Below, piece after piece: positions 4,728-19,445 of a stretch of DNA of 27,045 nucleotides (within the stretch, counting starts at the first letter, position 1; each line of letters begins with the position of its first letter). The stretch is from Candidatus Heimdallarchaeota archaeon. Its GTDB lineage: Archaea; Asgardarchaeota; Heimdallarchaeia; Heimdallarchaeales; Heimdallarchaeaceae. A model generated the notes under the pieces. The model had not been told where the DNA came from. It searched no databases and worked only from the letters and a program-made list of their open reading frames with translations. The translations under genes were made by a program, and so were the position numbers. The stretch covers positions 1 through 27,045 of the forward strand of contig JABCTC010000046.1 in the NCBI GenBank assembly GCA_018238545.1. The letters run 5' to 3'.

Positions 4728-5819
4728 ATGTCACAAAGAAATCTAATTAGTATCACTTTCCTTCTAATTACAAGTATTTTCATACTTCAGCCACTAACTT
4801 CCAATAGTTTGGCAGAAAATACTATTGATACCCATATTTCCTCTTCATGTACGATTTTTACTGCTACAATTGGCGATACTGTTTATTTTGGTAACAATGA
4901 GGATTACAAATACAATAATGCTTACAGATGGTATATTCCCGCACAGAACGTTTCAACACAATATTTTGGTATTAAGGAAATATATGGCTCTGTCTTCTTT
5001 GGTTTCGATAACAACAATGATTCTAATGTAGATGGCTGGGAACAAGGAGGGATGAACGAGCATGGATTATGTTATGATGGTAATGGTCTCCCCGATGTTC
5101 CATTAAATCTTGATCCACTTGCTTCGTATCCTTACACTCCCAATGCTCTTGCTCAAGTTTTATGGGATTGTAAGAATGTAACAGAAGTTATCACTTGGTA
5201 TCAGGATATTAAATGGAGTGGCTCTTTTGGGGGCCAAATCCATTATGCAGATAGTACTGGAGATGCTGTAGTTGTCGGTGTTAATTCTACAGGCCAATGG
5301 GTTTTTACCAGGATCGAGACTGCTTACCTAGTTTCAACCAACTTCAATCTAGATAATGTTACACATGGTCATTACCCTTGTGATAGATATAATACAGCGA
5401 CACAAATGCTAGGAGATATAACAGCTGAAGAAGATTTGACAGTCTCTACATGTGCAAATATACTCCACGAAGTTCATCAGGAAGGAACTTATGCTACTAA
5501 GTATAGTAACATCTGTGATCCTGTCAATCTAGACTTTTACTTCAACTGTGGAGAAAACTTCACAGATAGTGAGAAATTCAATCTTATAGACAAACTTGCT
5601 GAAACAGAATCATTTGAGGAAGAAGATAGCTTCTTTGGAGTTACAGGTGTAACTGAAGGAGTTTTAGTAAGAACAGAGAAGATTGATATTCAGTATGAGA
5701 CAGAATTGGAAACAGAAGAAACAAGTGGACTGACTATTTTCACTGTTTTAGTAGGTATTTCATTTTGTGTAGTAATGTACTCAATATTTAGAAAGAGAAG
5801 AATTACTTCTTCTTTTTAA
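4728..5819 (+). CDS. secreted, membrane-anchored Ntn-hydrolase (choloylglycine hydrolase / C45 / NAAA-like)
   Basis: Signal peptide, then S-CTIF..G..YFGNNED with the N-terminal nucleophile Cys; GGMNEHGL; STNF...CDRY; C-terminal ETSGL + TM + RKRR. Confidence 0.88.
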   Translation: MSQRNLISITFLLITSIFILQPLTSNSLAENTIDTHISSSCTIFTATIGDTVYFGNNEDYKYNNAYRWYIPAQNVSTQYFGIKEIYGSVFFGFDNNNDSNVDGWEQGGMNEHGLCYDGNGLPDVPLNLDPLASYPYTPNALAQVLWDCKNVTEVITWYQDIKWSGSFGGQIHYADSTGDAVVVGVNSTGQWVFTRIETAYLVSTNFNLDNVTHGHYPCDRYNTATQMLGDITAEEDLTVSTCANILHEVHQEGTYATKYSNICDPVNLDFYFNCGENFTDSEKFNLIDKLAETESFEEEDSFFGVTGVTEGVLVRTEKIDIQYETELETEETSGLTIFTVLVGISFCVVMYSIFRKRRITSSF

Positions 5820-12174: not shown

Positions 12175-13356
12175 TTAAAGAAGATTTAACTCTTTATGTT
12201 TTTCCGCTATTTTTTCTGCCATTATGTCTAATGCTTTGAAAGATTCTTCTTTTGGATGACCTTTGACATAAACAGGTTCTAAAATCTCAACTTCCTTCAA
12301 TCCTGGCACCATGTTGACAACTTGATCTATAGTCTTTGTAAACCATCCATAAGAACCAATAACTGAAATTAGTTTAATTTTTGGTTTCAGGGCATTTAGT
12401 AGATAGGCTGCATACACAGCTAAAGGATGAGGACCTGCGTGAACTGTTGGAGTGCCAAGAATCACAGTAGCTGCATCAACTAAAGTTATAGCAAGTTTAC
12501 CTATATCTACAACAGCTAAATCAAACTGATAGACTGTCACACCTTTTTCTACTAGAGCACCAACTAAGTATTCTACCATAATCCTTGTACTACCGTGCAT
12601 AGATACATAAGGGATAACTACAACATTTTTTGGCTTGTCTGAAATCCAATCTTCATAAGCATCTATTATGAAAGAGGGTTTGTCATAAATAGGTCCATGA
12701 CTAGGAGCTATCAGTTGGATTTCCAGTTTATTTACTTTATCAATATTTTTTCGAATAATTTTGCTAAACGGCATCATTATCTCAGCAAAATATCTTTTAG
12801 CGGCTTCATAGACTAATCCCTCATCTCTAACATAGAGATCGGTTGTTGCAACATGTGAACCAAAGAAGTCACAAGAAAAGAGTATTTTATCTTCTACAAG
12901 GTAGGAAACCATTGTTTCTGGCCAATGAACCCAAGGAGTATGGATGAATTTTAATGTTTTATCACCTAAAGAGATTTCCTCTCCGTCTTCTACAATCTGT
13001 ATCTGTTCTGGAGAAATCAATAAGTGATCTAGCAACATTTCCTTTCCTTTTTTAGTTGCGAGAACTATAGCAGATGGATACTTCTTAAGAACAGCTGGTA
13101 TAGCCCCTGAATGATCTTGTTCTGTATGGTGAGATACAATATAATCGATTTTTTCAACATCTTTCAACTGGGAGAAAAGTGTATCTGTCATGCTTGGTTC
13201 TATGGTGTCAAGCAAAACGGTTTTTTCACTTCCTTGAATCAAATAGGAATTATAACTAGTTCCATCAGGAAGAGGTATAAGAGAATCAAATAACCGTCTA
13301 TCCCAATCTATTCCACCTAACCAATAAACATTATCGGTTATTTTTCGTTTATTCAT
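12175..13356 (-). CDS. fprA: flavodiiron protein, FprA family (O2/NO reductase)
   Basis: GTSYNSYLI, SHHTEQDHSG, HWPET, SCDFFG and APSHG diiron ligands; flavodoxin domain YVSMHGST...GSYGW. Confidence 0.95.
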   Translation of the reverse strand: MNKRKITDNVYWLGGIDWDRRLFDSLIPLPDGTSYNSYLIQGSEKTVLLDTIEPSMTDTLFSQLKDVEKIDYIVSHHTEQDHSGAIPAVLKKYPSAIVLATKKGKEMLLDHLLISPEQIQIVEDGEEISLGDKTLKFIHTPWVHWPETMVSYLVEDKILFSCDFFGSHVATTDLYVRDEGLVYEAAKRYFAEIMMPFSKIIRKNIDKVNKLEIQLIAPSHGPIYDKPSFIIDAYEDWISDKPKNVVVIPYVSMHGSTRIMVEYLVGALVEKGVTVYQFDLAVVDIGKLAITLVDAATVILGTPTVHAGPHPLAVYAAYLLNALKPKIKLISVIGSYGWFTKTIDQVVNMVPGLKEVEILEPVYVKGHPKEESFKALDIMAEKIAEKHKELNLL

Positions 13357-13477
13357 GTGAAATACAAGGAATGGCAGTATTTAACTTATTCTCAATGACA
13401 TCTTATATCAAGGTTTTAAATTGGAAAAAGTTAAAGAGTATTTGATGAACCTTTCTTAATTATTCTCAACTCATAAA

Positions 13478-13966
13478 CTATGATTTCTGTTTTTCTAATT
13501 CCATTTTTAGTTCTTCATTATAGTCTGCTCTACTAGAATCATATTTTTTAGCTTCATCTGGATCTGCCAAGTTATCCCAATAGTGCTTATAATTGCTGGG
13601 GATGTCTTGAATATTTTTGTGATTTAGTAAATAATTAGTTGGCATTGGGTGAGTTCCTATTTCTACCTTCACTCCTATGTTCTTCTCAATGTGATTCTTG
13701 AAAACATCTATATTGGGACATGGAGGGTATCCTGCTAACATGCCAGTTGCAAAATGTATAACGTCTACACCATAATTCTTCATTCCTGAAGCAACGTATT
13801 CTATATTTCCACCTGGACATCCGCCACAAGTTGAGTAACCTATTACTTCTACTTCCTCATCAACATATTTCTTAAAAGCTCCATCTCGCTCTCTAACTGC
13901 TCTGAAGCATTTACCACCATTACAAGTATTGTAGCGATCACAAATAATAATTCCAATTCTTTGCAT
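13478..13966 (-). CDS. CGGC domain-containing protein
   Basis: IGIIIC..CNGGKC, TCGGCPG, IHFATG...PPCP, GTH pattern. Confidence 0.93.
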   Translation of the reverse strand: MQRIGIIICDRYNTCNGGKCFRAVRERDGAFKKYVDEEVEVIGYSTCGGCPGGNIEYVASGMKNYGVDVIHFATGMLAGYPPCPNIDVFKNHIEKNIGVKVEIGTHPMPTNYLLNHKNIQDIPSNYKHYWDNLADPDEAKKYDSSRADYNEELKMELEKQKS

Positions 13967-14093
13967 CTTAAATCAATGTAACAATTTTTTCAAATATTTT
14001 AAACCTTATTCAACAACTTTGCTGATTAGAACATCAAAGAAGTAGTGAACAATGTTTACTCCCTCTTCCAGTAGAATAATTATCTAGTAAAGC

Positions 14094-15386
14094 TTATTTT
14101 GATTCGCATATGGAATTTAGCGTTTTAAGAAAACCTCTTACTTCTTCCAGAGTATTATATTGTACCAAACTTATTCGCACAACTTTTTGTTTTTCATGTA
14201 AATCTTGTGCTAGTGAATAGAAATGACCTGAACGAGCAGCTATTCTTCCCTCATCCCATAAACGTTTTGCAACTTCTTCACCTGAAATACCCTCAACATC
14301 AAAGGAAAACGTTGGTACTCTCTCATTTAATCTCTGACTATCTGTCAAACCGTATACAGTTACACCGGGCATGTTTAATAAACCAGGAACTTCCTCAAAT
14401 CCCTTCAAAACTGCTAATGATAATCCAATCTCATTTTGTTGTATCGCATCCATAGCGATTTTCAGAAAACGTCGTCTTCCTTTAAATTCGGTAAACTTCC
14501 CACTATATTGCTGTTGCACTTCCCTTCCAATCCATTCTAGATGATCAACTACAGCACTAAATGCAGCAAAGAAAGCTTGATTTCTTGTCCCCCACTCATA
14601 TTTGCCCGGAGCTGTAGTTGGTGCAGTTTTTACTTTGAAGGGTCTAAGAGCCTCAAGGTACTTTTTCTTACCATAGAGAAAACTTCCATGCGAGCTGAAA
14701 ATTTTATAAGTGGAAAAAACTAGAAAATCACAATTTAATTCTTGAACATCAATTATACCATGCATTATCTGATGAACAGCATCAATGAAGTAGTATGCAC
14801 CAGCTTCTTTAGCCATTTTTCCGATTTCTTCTAAAGGACTTTTTGTACCTAAGAAATTGGATGCAGCAGTAATTGTAACAACCTTGGTATTTTCATCTAT
14901 CAACCCCTTTAAGTGCTCTAGGTCAATTGTTCCATCTTTCATATTCACTCTGGCATAACGAACTTCCTTTATTTTTCCTTGATCCTTGAGTTCTTCCCAA
15001 GGACTAACATTAGTATAGTGTTCATAGTCTGTAGCAACTACATTCTCTATTCCAGTAAATTCTTTGCCTAAGGCATAACTAATGTTGAAAACTAGTGAAG
15101 TAGCTGATTCACCAGAAATAATATTTTCAGGAGATGGGGCATTAAGCAAGTCTGCTACAGCTTGTCTTCCTTCGCGAATGATTTTCATTGCTTGTTGAGA
15201 TTCATCAAAAACACCACCAATATTGGCACTGAAATTAATCCGTGCATCGTGTTCAGCTTTTGCAGCTTGTTTCAAGACTAATGTCCCTGTTCCATTATCA
15301 AAAAAGGATCTGTTATTTCCATTAAAATCTACAGCTGACTGAGGAAAAGCTGCTCGTATTTTTTCTACTAACTCTTTACTAAACAT
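14094..15386 (-). CDS. class V aminotransferase, cysteine desulfurase-like protein (VC1184-type, no catalytic Cys)
   Basis: IRAAFP..FFDNG.GT, ASNFLGT, DAVH, FSTYK (PLP Lys), E.GT; RSGHFY in place of R.GxxC. Confidence 0.9.
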   Translation of the reverse strand: MFSKELVEKIRAAFPQSAVDFNGNNRSFFDNGTGTLVLKQAAKAEHDARINFSANIGGVFDESQQAMKIIREGRQAVADLLNAPSPENIISGESATSLVFNISYALGKEFTGIENVVATDYEHYTNVSPWEELKDQGKIKEVRYARVNMKDGTIDLEHLKGLIDENTKVVTITAASNFLGTKSPLEEIGKMAKEAGAYYFIDAVHQIMHGIIDVQELNCDFLVFSTYKIFSSHGSFLYGKKKYLEALRPFKVKTAPTTAPGKYEWGTRNQAFFAAFSAVVDHLEWIGREVQQQYSGKFTEFKGRRRFLKIAMDAIQQNEIGLSLAVLKGFEEVPGLLNMPGVTVYGLTDSQRLNERVPTFSFDVEGISGEEVAKRLWDEGRIAARSGHFYSLAQDLHEKQKVVRISLVQYNTLEEVRGFLKTLNSICESK

Positions 15387-15616
15387 CAGTGATCATCCTA
15401 TGTAAAAAACCCCTTTATGGACAGAAGAGATAAGCCTTAGATTTGAAGTTTTTGGTTTTCAAAAGTTCATGGTGGAATTGACTTTTGATCTCAATATATT
15501 AAAAACACAAGATAAATAAAGTATAAGGAGAAAAAAAAGTAGGAAGTCTCTGTGCAAATTGTGTTTCAAGAGACAAAGGAATTTCGTCTCGAAATTTCAC
15601 AATCTCCAAGAGATTA

Positions 15617-15637
15617 GGGGAGGATTATTCCTCTCCC
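15617..15637 (-). terminator. GC-rich hairpin 3' of the 16-aa peptide gene (U-tract further on at 15531-15538)
   Basis: GGGAGAGGA-ATAA-TCCTCCCC begins 12 nt after the stop codon; two more hairpins and a T8 tract follow. Confidence 0.5.
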
Positions 15638-15648
15638 ACTCCTTCTAT

Positions 15649-15699
15649 TTATGGTGGCCAGAATTCTGGCTCGTCTGGGTCTCCTTGTGGTCCGAACAT
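15649..15699 (-). CDS. 16-aa Pro-rich acidic peptide MFGPQGDPDEPEFWPP
   Basis: SD AAGGAGGTG at 15717-15709, 9-nt spacer, ATG at 15699, TAA at 15651-15649. GC-rich island with a 3' hairpin; TTTAAATA box upstream at 15855-15848. Confidence 0.6.
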   Translation of the reverse strand: MFGPQGDPDEPEFWPP

Positions 15700-15821
15700 C
15701 CTTACATACACCTCCTTGTGTTACTATTGTATGGAAGACAACAAGGAGAAATCTTCTATGTCAAAAAGGGTGAAAAACAAATTGTATCTTATCTTCAGGC
15801 TGTAAGATGCCGTTCTAATTG

Positions 15822-15872
15822 TCGGATATTCTTACCCGATACTCCAATATTTAAAGGAAAATCGTTAAATAA
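15822..15872. promoter_or_regulatory. back-to-back divergent promoters with a candidate operator
   Basis: Minus-strand TTTAAATA (15855-15848); plus-strand GGAAAATCG-TTAAATAA (TATA 15865-15872), 23 nt before ATG 15896, implying a leaderless mRNA; imperfect inverted repeat TCGG-N10-CCGA at 15822-15839. Confidence 0.5.
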
Positions 15873-15895
15873 AGCAAAAAACTCCACAATTTGCC

Positions 15896-17386
15896 ATGTC
15901 TGGCATTACAAATCAGAATCTTGTAATTAGGTTGGAGGAAGCGGATAAAATCTTGGAAGATGATTACGCTCAATTCCATAGTGTTATAGTTGACAATAGT
16001 ATTCAATCTGAATCTCCGTTGTGGGACATAGCCTGTTTTCTGACCTATTTTGAGCTTTCACCTAAATCAGTAAAAAAGCAAAAATGGGTGGAGTACTGGT
16101 TCAAATTCAGTAAAACAAGAAAATACAAGAATCTCGTTTATATGGTTCCAGCTAGCTACGTTGCATTATCTGATTTGCGTAAAGCTAAAGACTTCTTCGT
16201 CAATCTTCTAGAACAAAGCAGACGATCAATGAAAGAGTTGGCATGGGAAACTTTCCTCTCTATTTTTTATCAATTCAGAGCATCTGTTAAGCCCTCATTT
16301 AATAAAAGAGAATTTGCTGTGTTCAAGACAATTCTAGATAGACAAACGATGGTTTCAAGCGAGCTTAAAGATTATTTAGACATTGATCTCTCCAATATTT
16401 CAAAGTATAAGAACATCGTAGGATCAAAGAGAGTCTTACATCAAGGCATCTCTCTAAATTATCATAAACTTGATCTTTCAGTATATGGTTTGATGTTTGA
16501 ATACCCTCTGACAAACGATATTGATCTTTTCTCTAAATTGTCGAAAAGTGTGTTTTTTCATTCCTTGTATACTGGAAATGTTGGGTGCAGATCCTCTCTC
16601 TCGTATTTCGTTGCACCAAGGTTTGAAAAAGTAGAAAATGACTTAAGAAAATTATCAAAGAGAATATGCGAAAATAATCATGTCCCTTACTCTCGTGTTT
16701 TACGATTTCTAACCGAAACTAGATTGAAGTCATTTAATTGTAACATATACGATTTTAAGACTGGAAATTGGAAACTCAATCCTCAAAATCTTCAGTTTAC
16801 TCTTCAAGATTATGATTCAAGATTAGTTGAGTCAGTACCTATACTAACTCGCGATTTTGAGAAGTGTGACTATGAAAAATTAAGATTGAATAAAACAGGT
16901 CTTGATATCTTAAATCACATTCTTGCAAACAAACACTTATCGATAAGGGATATAGTTAGTGACCTTGGATTGGCAGAAAAAGAAGTAAAGAAGCAAGTTG
17001 ACAAACTTCGAAAAAATGACTTGTACAAGTTGCGATACAACCCTTTATTCGTATTTGGCTTAAAACACATTATCTTATTTTTACGTGATTTTCATGAAAA
17101 TCAGCATGAGATTCATAAGACTCTGTCCTTCTTCCCAGAAGTGTTTAGTGAACAATATGTATCTGAAGGAAAAAATGGTCTTTACATTGTCCTTAGGGTT
17201 CCTTATGAGCTTGTAGTTGATGCAATTGAGTCTCTTACAGACTTTTTTAAAGGAAAAATAGAGAATCTTTTCATCGTTGACCAAATGATTACAACAAGAT
17301 ATCAGTTGCCTGTAGATAAATATGAAACAGTTTTTCAAGAGTGGAAGTACTCTTCTGAAGATATCCTGGGAGCTGATTTTAAGTGA
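15896..17386 (+). CDS. tandem Lrp/AsnC-like winged-helix transcriptional regulator with an extra N-terminal domain
   Basis: Two HTH + linker units: FNKREFAVFKTI...SELKDYLDIDLSNISKY...LNYHKLDL and LNKTGLDILNHI...SIRDIVSDLGLAEKEVKKQVDKLRK...FGL, each followed by an alpha/beta domain ending in W-K-hydrophobic. Confidence 0.75.
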   Translation: MSGITNQNLVIRLEEADKILEDDYAQFHSVIVDNSIQSESPLWDIACFLTYFELSPKSVKKQKWVEYWFKFSKTRKYKNLVYMVPASYVALSDLRKAKDFFVNLLEQSRRSMKELAWETFLSIFYQFRASVKPSFNKREFAVFKTILDRQTMVSSELKDYLDIDLSNISKYKNIVGSKRVLHQGISLNYHKLDLSVYGLMFEYPLTNDIDLFSKLSKSVFFHSLYTGNVGCRSSLSYFVAPRFEKVENDLRKLSKRICENNHVPYSRVLRFLTETRLKSFNCNIYDFKTGNWKLNPQNLQFTLQDYDSRLVESVPILTRDFEKCDYEKLRLNKTGLDILNHILANKHLSIRDIVSDLGLAEKEVKKQVDKLRKNDLYKLRYNPLFVFGLKHIILFLRDFHENQHEIHKTLSFFPEVFSEQYVSEGKNGLYIVLRVPYELVVDAIESLTDFFKGKIENLFIVDQMITTRYQLPVDKYETVFQEWKYSSEDILGADFK

Positions 17387-18837
17387 AAGAAATCTATTTG
17401 ACATTCTATCAATTTATACCGTTAATAGAAATAGCTTACTCACACGAATTGCGAGATCACTTGAAATTCTTAGCTGAAGGAAACACCACATCTAAAACCA
17501 TTGAGAAAAGTTATAAAAACAAAAAGATTTGTGAAACTTCAGAAGACATTAAAACTGCTTTTCTTTCAACTTACAGCGATTTGAGATGGTCTTGGTATGA
17601 TGATGGTTATAACTATTACAGAAATTTTCGAAGTTTCATTTTTCAAAACCAACCACTGAGGCCACTTGTTCCAATAATTTCTAGAACAATTAAATGGAAG
17701 AGAACTCCAACAGTAGATTCTAAAATTGTTTCAACAAAAAAAGCCGAGTTGTCACCAATTTTAATTGGTCGTTCGATAAAAAAAATTATCCTCACAAAAA
17801 CTGATAAGAATGTTAGAGATTTTGAATCGAATCTGAAATTATTGCTCCGTTTCTGCAATGAGAGTAAAATCAAAGAAAAAATGTCTTTTCTAAATGGCGT
17901 ATTCAAGGATACAAGTGCTATAAGTATTCAAGATTCAGATATTATCACAATCATTGAGACAGATCCACAAACGTATAAGAATCTTGATTTTGCAAATCAG
18001 AAAATAAATCGAGTATATTACGGTGGAATAGAGCTTTTTGTTCACGATATGAAACAAGTTTATGTTATTTACAAAGAAAAACCACCAAAGGTACTCAGAA
18101 AGAGAGTAGAGAAGATTGTTTCTTTAGTTTTCAGTTTGAAATTCCTTATTCAACGTGCAACATATTTATTGAGCACCGACTTATTGGAAAATCTGGGGAT
18201 TAGAACCGTCTCAAACGTTCTAGAATACTTTCTATCATCTTTAAATCCCTCAATTTATTCTTCTCAAAATATACCAAATTTGCTACCAAAACATTACCAA
18301 AGAATGCTATTCAAATCACTTTGTAGAAAGATGAACCTTCTAAATAATTTTTCAAATCTTTTTGAAAAAATCAAGAAAAAGATACTGGATATGCCAGCTT
18401 ATGAAGCAAGTTTCTTTTTCAGGAAGAAGAATATTTTTACAAACGATTTAAGAGACAAAGTTATTCTTACTCTCGCTGAAGAACCAGAGCCTAAATTATC
18501 GGTGCAGGAAAGGCTGATGTTGGACTTTTTTGTTGATCAATATAAGAAAGAACTTGAAAATGATCCCCTGTATGATTTCAAAGTCCAAAGAGAGGAAACT
18601 TTAGGGACTATGACTAGAAATATTGTCAGAAAAAACATTAACACTTGGTTAAAAGATAAAGGCTTTCCAAAAAATACTTTTACAGATAACGAGTTGAAGA
18701 AAGCCCCAGTAGCAGATGTAATAAGTAGGTTAAATAAGAAGGACTTGATAATCATCGCCCCTGTGGAAAAGGGAAGAGTAGAGCTTCATTTGAGCTTAAA
18801 TGAAACAAACAAATTTATAGAAAAATTATTGCTGTGA
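17383..18837 (+). CDS. hypothetical protein with probable C-terminal winged-helix domain
   Basis: GTGA 4-bp overlap with the upstream gene; C-terminal LSVQERLMLDFF...VADVISRLNKKDLII..VEKGR.ELHLSL resembles a wHTH. N-terminal 360 aa not recognised. Confidence 0.7.
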   Translation: MKEIYLTFYQFIPLIEIAYSHELRDHLKFLAEGNTTSKTIEKSYKNKKICETSEDIKTAFLSTYSDLRWSWYDDGYNYYRNFRSFIFQNQPLRPLVPIISRTIKWKRTPTVDSKIVSTKKAELSPILIGRSIKKIILTKTDKNVRDFESNLKLLLRFCNESKIKEKMSFLNGVFKDTSAISIQDSDIITIIETDPQTYKNLDFANQKINRVYYGGIELFVHDMKQVYVIYKEKPPKVLRKRVEKIVSLVFSLKFLIQRATYLLSTDLLENLGIRTVSNVLEYFLSSLNPSIYSSQNIPNLLPKHYQRMLFKSLCRKMNLLNNFSNLFEKIKKKILDMPAYEASFFFRKKNIFTNDLRDKVILTLAEEPEPKLSVQERLMLDFFVDQYKKELENDPLYDFKVQREETLGTMTRNIVRKNINTWLKDKGFPKNTFTDNELKKAPVADVISRLNKKDLIIIAPVEKGRVELHLSLNETNKFIEKLLL

Positions 18838-19118: not shown

Positions 19119-19445
19119 TTGATTGATTTAGAATGGAGAATGAAAATGGGAAAAAGTTACCAGTTTTACTGTAAAGAATGCGAATTAAATATGATCCTAT
19201 ATGAAGGTATCAAGTACAAACCAGATGATACTTCAATAAATTATTACTGCTTTAAATGCAACAAAATATCTTATCATGATACTTGTTTAGATTGCGGAGA
19301 TAAACTGTATTACTCTATTGAGATACCCAAGAAAAAACGAAAGATGCCCACTTCTTCTGATCAACCTATGGAAATCAAACTAGCATGTCCAAAATGTCGT
19401 TCTAAAGAAACTATTCTCACAAAAATCGGTGAATGGGTGCGTTGA
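19119..19445 (+). CDS. multi-CxxC zinc-ribbon protein
   Basis: Four CxxC pairs (CKEC, CFKC, CLDC, CPKC). The start may be an ATG about 21-27 nt downstream. Confidence 0.8.
   Translation: MIDLEWRMKMGKSYQFYCKECELNMILYEGIKYKPDDTSINYYCFKCNKISYHDTCLDCGDKLYYSIEIPKKKRKMPTSSDQPMEIKLACPKCRSKETILTKIGEWVR

Follow-up and report, generated by a model that had tools for sequence, protein, structure and literature searches.

An apparently undescribed Asgard cassette of a micro-peptide gene and a divergent tandem-Lrp regulator that probably switches CRISPR immunity genes where it adjoins them

We analysed a 27,045-nt stretch of DNA (hereafter the window; forward strand, positions 1 to 27,045 of contig JABCTC010000046.1, assembly GCA_018238545.1) from a Heimdallarchaeaceae archaeon and found that, by sequence comparison, it holds a real and conserved gene of 16 codons, divergent from a coupled pair of larger genes, here called A (496 aa) and B (484 aa). 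Together the peptide gene, A and B form a cassette, copies of which usually adjoin CRISPR immunity genes in Asgard archaea, and which probably switches those genes in such relatives. The cassette is apparently undescribed in the literature searched: topic searches, covering titles and the opening parts of abstracts, returned no description of it (a mention in an Asgard CRISPR diversity paper or in figures is possible), and the terms "Lrp" and "HTH" are absent from the main text of the Heimdallarchaeum genome paper. We favour, with a probability of roughly 45%, a reading in which the peptide acts as an intracellular ligand that switches the control of the divergent promoter by A and B. A first-pass annotation of the window, made from its letters alone, had been right about the gene layout and in predicting its conservation, but had missed the structured RNA 3' of the peptide gene and the CRISPR/defence context.

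The peptide gene lies on the minus strand at 15649–15699, where an open reading frame (ORF) running from 15699 to 15649, just as first annotated, encodes 16 residues followed by TAA. The peptide is acidic, Pro-rich and Trp-containing, with a grand average of hydropathy (GRAVY) of −1.23, a net charge of −4 and no hydrophobic stretch. Its strong Shine-Dalgarno (SD) sequence (15709–15717, minus strand), also part of the original claim, is located 9 nt ahead of the ATG and pairs over 8 nt with the 3' end of the host's own 16S rRNA. The GGAGGT(G) of this element was kept in 13/13 genus-level peptide loci, its 9-mer occurred 11 times in the 3.6-Mb host genome, and the combination of SD, ATG and short ORF arose by chance in 16 of 20,000 shuffled versions of the intergenic region. 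Third codon positions made up 10 of the 13 variable sites in the C-terminal core of the peptide, indicating that the ORF is probably under protein-level selection, with the C-terminal motif D-P-x-x-P-x-W-P conserved as protein and the N-terminal half varying freely. Conservation of nucleotides without the reading frame had been named as a finding that would speak against a gene; the homologous loci conserved the protein and not the nucleotides. A chance origin of the ORF from conserved regulatory DNA, for which its very short length and purely sequence-based support could be cited, is hard to reconcile with the third-position bias, the conserved SD spacing, an approximately 60-fold enrichment over background and the conservation of the peptide across Heimdallarchaeia and Thorarchaeia, and we regard that explanation as already largely refuted and extremely improbable.

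Linkage of the peptide to gene A extended well beyond the window. Within the genus, at every intact same-clade A homologue with readable upstream DNA, down to 38% identity of A, an SD-led ORF of 15–18 codons was found on the opposite strand about 180–245 nt upstream of A, the exceptions being L001, which has a TnpB-like insertion upstream of A, and L014. The inserted TnpB/Cas12f-like element (L001:13–1443) stands directly upstream of A in place of the promoter region, and L014 (L014/L175:4237–5800, genome G023) is a frameshifted second copy of A without a peptide, 12 kb from an intact cassette. SD-led orthologues remained divergent from A even where A was only about 20% identical, and related peptides adjoined A homologues that are much more remote, in Thorarchaeia and further Asgard families, strongly bearing out, across Asgard lineages, the earlier prediction of SD-led Pro/acidic/aromatic short ORFs divergent from A. 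With a fixed filter, a divergent Pro/acidic/aromatic ORF within 900 nt was detected at 19/30 de-duplicated core-clade A genes and at 18 of 43 broader-family genes, compared with 16 of 1478 (1.1%) other long ORFs of the host genome; this filter was designed after the peptides had been seen, duplicates were removed by hand, and the related genomes are not independent. The pattern SD-ATG-DDP gave 7 matches in 30 family genomes, every one beside A or B, and all 19 A genes in the tree with B next to them and upstream DNA that could be read had a peptide. For A and B alike, homologues came from Heimdallarchaeota/Heimdallarchaeaceae, the lineage of the host, and B was present in 23 of the 399 Asgard genomes. 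One sub-clade dispenses with B, two sister loci there (L008/L010) having kept the peptide and A and lost B, the palindrome and the full 3' RNA in a single event. At L196 (329–5078; G004:C37), A was present in three tandem copies with neither peptide nor B. The range of the peptide family was illustrated by the homologue at L105 (G088), which has a signal-peptide-like hydrophobic N-terminus, and by that at L096 (G082), a 26-aa doubled W-P form.

Gene A (15896–17386, plus strand) overlaps gene B (17383–18837, plus strand) by GTGA, as had been noted, and its predicted product comprises a helical, aromatic-rich N-terminal domain (N-domain, approximately residues 1–130) followed by winged helix-turn-helix (wHTH) and RAM domains in the order wHTH-RAM-wHTH-RAM. 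The earlier description of A as a tandem Lrp-like protein was upheld by an AlphaFold2 (AF2) model with a predicted local distance difference test (pLDDT) score of 89, in which two wHTH-RAM units stand behind the helical N-domain. The best structural match was NirDL (Z 15.7, root-mean-square deviation (rmsd) 5.0, 289 residues aligned, 11–12% identity), with single Lrp/AsnC proteins next at Z 7–8; in Pfam only HTH_24 passed, and HTH_AsnC-type scored 14.7 bits against a cut-off of 27. As modelled, A has the Lrp fold yet is not a standard member of the Lrp/AsnC family. Like Lrp/AsnC proteins (FFRP, feast/famine regulatory proteins; PF0864, ST1022 and PH1519) it joins wHTH to RAM, duplicated in one chain as in NirDL (4CZC), but unlike them it carries an extra aromatic-rich N-domain of about 130 aa, shows 10–17% identity, falls below the Pfam AsnC cut-offs and is associated with a peptide gene instead of with amino-acid metabolism. 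A cluster of invariant Trp, Tyr, Phe and Pro residues was found in the N-domain, the helix-turn-helix residues were highly conserved and the first recognition helix was well conserved. Three tandem-Lrp paralogues of about 370 aa in the host genome possess neither the N-domain nor a peptide.

The match to NirDL, a siroheme decarboxylase that is itself Lrp-derived, would also suit a NirDL/AhbAB-like enzyme whose substrate is the peptide, comparable to the precursor of a ribosomally synthesized and post-translationally modified peptide (RiPP). We consider this very improbable, since a match at such low identity is explained by the shared tandem-Lrp architecture, the conserved helix-turn-helix residues and the palindrome point to DNA binding, and cofactor, tailoring or export genes were not recurrent. 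In the annotated loci, nir/ahb genes were not recognized beside A, and the RiPP hallmarks looked for (tailoring enzyme, protease, exporter) did not recur.

A TATA box of the A-B operon (TTAAATAA/TTAATAAA; 15865–15872 in the window, plus strand) was found 20–24 nt ahead of the A start codon in 10 of 11 loci, and this conserved position supports the proposed leaderless start of A at 15896. The element claimed as the peptide gene's own TATA box (TTTAAATA, 15855–15848) fared worse: it was altered in the three closest orthologues and is not conserved. An imperfect palindrome, which we regard as a candidate operator, occupies 15820–15841 (no strand assigned; consensus TATCGGGTAA-N2-TTACCCGATA) and recurs at 11 or more genus-level loci. 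It had been reported in the first-pass annotation, and its presence and conservation stood, but its placement between the peptide TATA box and the transcript start is unsupported, since that box is not conserved. The distance from palindrome to peptide ATG is nearly fixed and that to the TATA box of A is 23–35 nt; the palindrome was the top-scoring site in its own genome, but with a scoring matrix that includes that very site, and it was absent in the sister pair L008/L010. Elsewhere, a strong match to the palindrome matrix (G000:C56:6836–6860) marks a candidate site immediately upstream of a gene for a secreted protein and flanked by two tandem-Lrp paralogues of 370 aa. A putative leader hairpin with an anti-SD-like loop (15733–15756, minus strand) was recognized by eye in L019–L022 and L036, the closest relatives only, and was not seen in the L023 group.

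In the mechanism that we propose, A, as a single-chain Lrp pseudo-dimer and probably together with B, would bind the palindrome between the divergent promoters, while the strong SD and a structure-protected mRNA would allow the peptide to be made at a high rate. The peptide would stay unprocessed inside the cell, where its C-terminal D-P-x-x-P-x-W-P motif could bind A, most plausibly at the aromatic-rich N-domain. Such binding would alter promoter occupancy and close a feedback loop, so that the peptide level would report the cell's own gene expression, and this control of the divergent promoters would extend to any attached cas operon; the apparent targets of the orphan copy in the window are only itself, B and a zinc-ribbon gene. 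Prediction of a complex between the cognate A and a 40-codon in-frame ORF at L049, the last 16 residues of which are the peptide, gave a score of 0.02, which is no evidence either way, the extra 24 N-terminal residues being probably not translated.

Several points weigh against the ligand reading. No CRISPR or defence genes lie near the cassette in the window copy or in its four closest relatives, and neither a cas operon nor an array was detected in the host genome, which is 91.8% complete. The genome-wide operator scan gave no convincing palindrome regulon, and the palindrome was not seen at the CRISPR-linked copies of the cassette. Eight of 31 core-clade A genes had no adjacent peptide, and the correlation between N-domain and peptide comes from three paralogues of one genome. 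To our knowledge, the RAM domains of Lrp/AsnC proteins bind single amino acids and not peptides.

Across relatives, the cassette, whole or split, was located inside or beside type I-B, I-D or III CRISPR-Cas in 12 loci: type I-B in H. aukensis (L162, L189 and L168), type I plus III at L164, type I-D in Thorarchaeia (L169, with L170, L171 and L173 assigned by similarity to L169 and by their arrays), Cmr at L092, and further CRISPR-Cas-linked copies at L166, L167 and L199. Elsewhere, copies of the cassette adjoin an OLD-like ATPase-nuclease, mad8/DndF-like genes or a CARF gene. In L162, L189 and L164 the cas operon begins with the peptide gene, and in Thorarchaeia and L168 the cas genes come after A-B and the peptide points away. 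Relative to A and B the position of the peptide is thus constant, relative to the cas operon it is not, and this favours action in trans. On a tree rooted only at its midpoint, the A of the window was nested among CRISPR-linked copies, making detachment from an ancestral defence locus the simplest history, and we infer from this placement that the window copy is a detached orphan of a cassette whose ancestral role is the regulation of CRISPR-Cas or other defence genes. The only cas traces in the host genome were a Cas1 fragment and a weak match to a probable Cas5. A crude scan of that genome yielded one array-like feature, a four-copy repeat with a 76–78-bp period (G000:C26:36261–36510), which looks tandem rather than CRISPR.

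Regulators of defence loci such as Csa3 (CARF-wHTH) and CapW/BrxR (WYL) work at the divergent promoters from which CRISPR-Cas and other defence operons are transcribed. Like these regulators, the A/B family recurs at CRISPR-Cas (12 loci, the window copy not being one of them); unlike them, it has as its candidate ligand not a nucleotide or nucleic acid but a peptide encoded in the cassette itself. No Pfam match to CARF or WYL was obtained in A or B, nor a PADLOC match in B, the N-terminal region of which is poorly modelled. In Thorarchaeia (L110:2339–3034, L090:3187–3915 and others), an HFX_2341/DUF6293 CARF-like wHTH gene stands beside a broader-family tandem-Lrp gene, often between the latter and the peptide or just after it.

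The three loci in which the peptide gene directly precedes a cas operon would also be expected if the peptide were the output of the cassette, with A and B merely controlling its expression and with the Cas complex, the ribosome or a proline-motif reader as its target. An abundant product is suggested by the strong SD and the protected 3' end, the spacing of the palindrome to the peptide gene is more constant than its spacing to A, and the same genome encodes a second family of acidic Pro/Trp peptides beside TPR proteins. Such an output is nevertheless unlikely, as the peptide is intact where cas genes are not near, and it accompanies A in systems of types I-B, I-D and III, the effector complexes of which differ.

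Downstream of the peptide stop codon, the minus strand carries a conserved structured RNA (15533–15647) made up of two hairpins, one short and one long and bulged, on a closing helix, as well as the T8 tract (15531–15538, minus strand) that had been claimed at 15538–15531 and is a likely transcript end, T-rich tracts following the RNA in orthologues. The 3' hairpin of the first-pass annotation was present but understated, being part of this multi-helix RNA of about 115 nt. The 115 nt after the stop had a minimum free energy of −40.4 kcal/mol (z −4.99 relative to shuffles), and the consensus was a three-way junction in which 10 of 25 pairs changed on both sides and 93.5% of cells were paired; none of 500 shuffles showed covariation as high, in an alignment of ten sequences that fall into about three related groups. 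A model of the RNA gave strong matches in 9 genomes within the genus, one each and all at this locus, every one of which had served to build the model. There was no Rfam family for it, and one hairpin weakly resembled a CRISPR repeat (expect value (E) 0.66, below threshold). A simpler hairpin right after the peptide stop persisted even in distant copies. The RNA may well protect the 3' end of the transcript. A pseudoknot was also considered and is unnecessary, as the nested three-way junction accounts for the covariation. A weak match to the model (E 6e−4) was recorded at L065 (G017:C18:21447–21514), in a genome without a detected A gene.

CreT and the CreTA or solitary repeat units near cas genes are laid out as a strong SD, a mini-ORF and a stable stem-loop. 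The cassette shares this layout, with its hairpin after the stop kept even in distant copies, and many peptide orthologues end in Pro-stop or Trp-Pro-Pro-stop, endings that resemble bacterial arrest motifs, which together would fit a functional role for the act of translation or for the RNA, as a Pro-rich ribosome-arrest leader or a CreT-like RNA. Against such a role, the identity of the gene that follows the peptide is unconstrained and the cas genes are often on the other side, Pro-stop is not invariant and no rare-codon pair is conserved, and L008/L010 kept the peptide while the full RNA was lost or truncated; we accordingly think it rather improbable. Unlike in CreTA, the peptide sequence here appears to be under selection, and the repeat-like handle differs among orthologues. 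A CRISPR-repeat/CreTA origin was rejected: the handle is not conserved, nor is a 10-nt match to the start region of A, and the Rfam match is below threshold.

The divergent arrangement recalls SHP/Rgg and other RRNPP pairs of Bacillota, in which a tiny peptide gene is divergent from its regulator (PMC3679016). Of the analogy drawn in the first-pass annotation, the divergent layout stood, but the peptide chemistry (acidic, hydrophilic, no export signal) and the receptor fold (Lrp, not TPR) did not. As in SHP/Rgg, the conserved C-terminal part of the peptide begins near an acidic residue and a candidate operator lies between the genes; the cassette differs in its tandem-Lrp rather than HTH-TPR regulator, in its acidic Pro-rich rather than hydrophobic peptide, and in having a second wHTH gene, a structured 3' RNA and a CRISPR/defence context. 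A TPR was not detected in A by Pfam match or fold (pLDDT 89), the N-terminal region of B being poorly modelled, and the window peptide does not resemble a hydrophobic precursor with an export signal.

By the same analogy, the peptide could be an intercellular signal, for quorum or as a lysis alarm, which is exported, re-imported and activates A. The layout, the variable N-terminal half and, as in mature SHPs (PMC3679016), a conserved C-terminal core with an acidic first residue agree with this, as does the hydrophobic N-terminus of a few distant homologues (L105, L126). We nonetheless judge such signalling to be an improbable role, given the hydrophilic and strongly negative window peptide and given that no exporter, protease or importer recurred beside the cassette in the loci read.

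We know of no established peptide-controlled transcription factor in archaea. The regulation of Asgard antiviral systems is essentially undescribed, and the cassette touches that gap with a small testable set consisting of a synthesizable 16-mer, a well-folded regulator and a 22-bp candidate operator, in an orphan copy that retains peptide, RNA and palindrome without nearby cas genes. It shows, too, that the closest prokaryotic relatives of eukaryotes harbour a large class of micro-genes that have escaped annotation and consist of proline/tryptophan motifs like those which eukaryotic adaptor domains read. A broader and somewhat doubtful proposal is that micro-peptides with acidic Pro/Trp linear motifs, acting inside the cell, form a class used across the Asgard phylum to switch CRISPR-Cas and other defence genes, with tandem-Lrp proteins as their readers and TPR proteins as a parallel set of readers. 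If that proposal holds, it would be the first case known to us in which a peptide ligand controls an Lrp-fold regulator, and likewise the first for archaeal immunity. On contigs C10, C68 and C86 of G000 (e.g. L052:283–351, 5537–5608 and 5728–5796), at least ten acidic Pro/Trp ORFs of 22–27 aa (YDP...PP.W.P type) adjoin TPR-like genes of about 530 aa; they make up another peptide family, which is similar in chemistry and has partners of a different fold.

The product of B consists of an N-terminal region of about 360 aa with no assigned fold and a C-terminal winged helix (residues 363–484). The wHTH tail ascribed to it earlier was confirmed by a match to the winged helix of archaeal Orc2/Cdc6 (Z 9.0, rmsd 2.9, 90 residues aligned), in a whole-protein AF2 model with a pLDDT of 61. 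B belonged to no Pfam, PADLOC, PHROG or NCBIfam family, and its N-terminal region had no significant match by Foldseek, PDB sequence, atlas or PADLOC searches, which gave only weak rows for the soluble domain of CorA; this absence of matches does not show a new fold. Residues 84–180 of A and 300–470 of B are alike in that a P-x-x-Y motif and helices precede a winged helix, which could hint at a shared module; comparison of their profiles was not significant (E 0.09, probability 0.6%).

Among the neighbouring genes, a Cys-rich zinc-ribbon gene of about 100 aa (19140–19445, plus strand; start at 19119, 19140 or 19146), with no family above cut-off, is an accessory neighbour within the genus, following B in the clade of the window and following the peptide gene in the L007–L010 clade. 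Downstream of the peptide, a cluster on the minus strand (12175–15386) comprises genes for a cysteine-desulfurase-like aminotransferase, a CGGC-domain protein and a flavodiiron (FprA-like) protein, and is linked to the cassette only in close relatives. The possibility that the peptide is a leader for the cysteine-desulfurase-like gene was rejected, as the window and L005 are the only loci where the two genes are neighbours.

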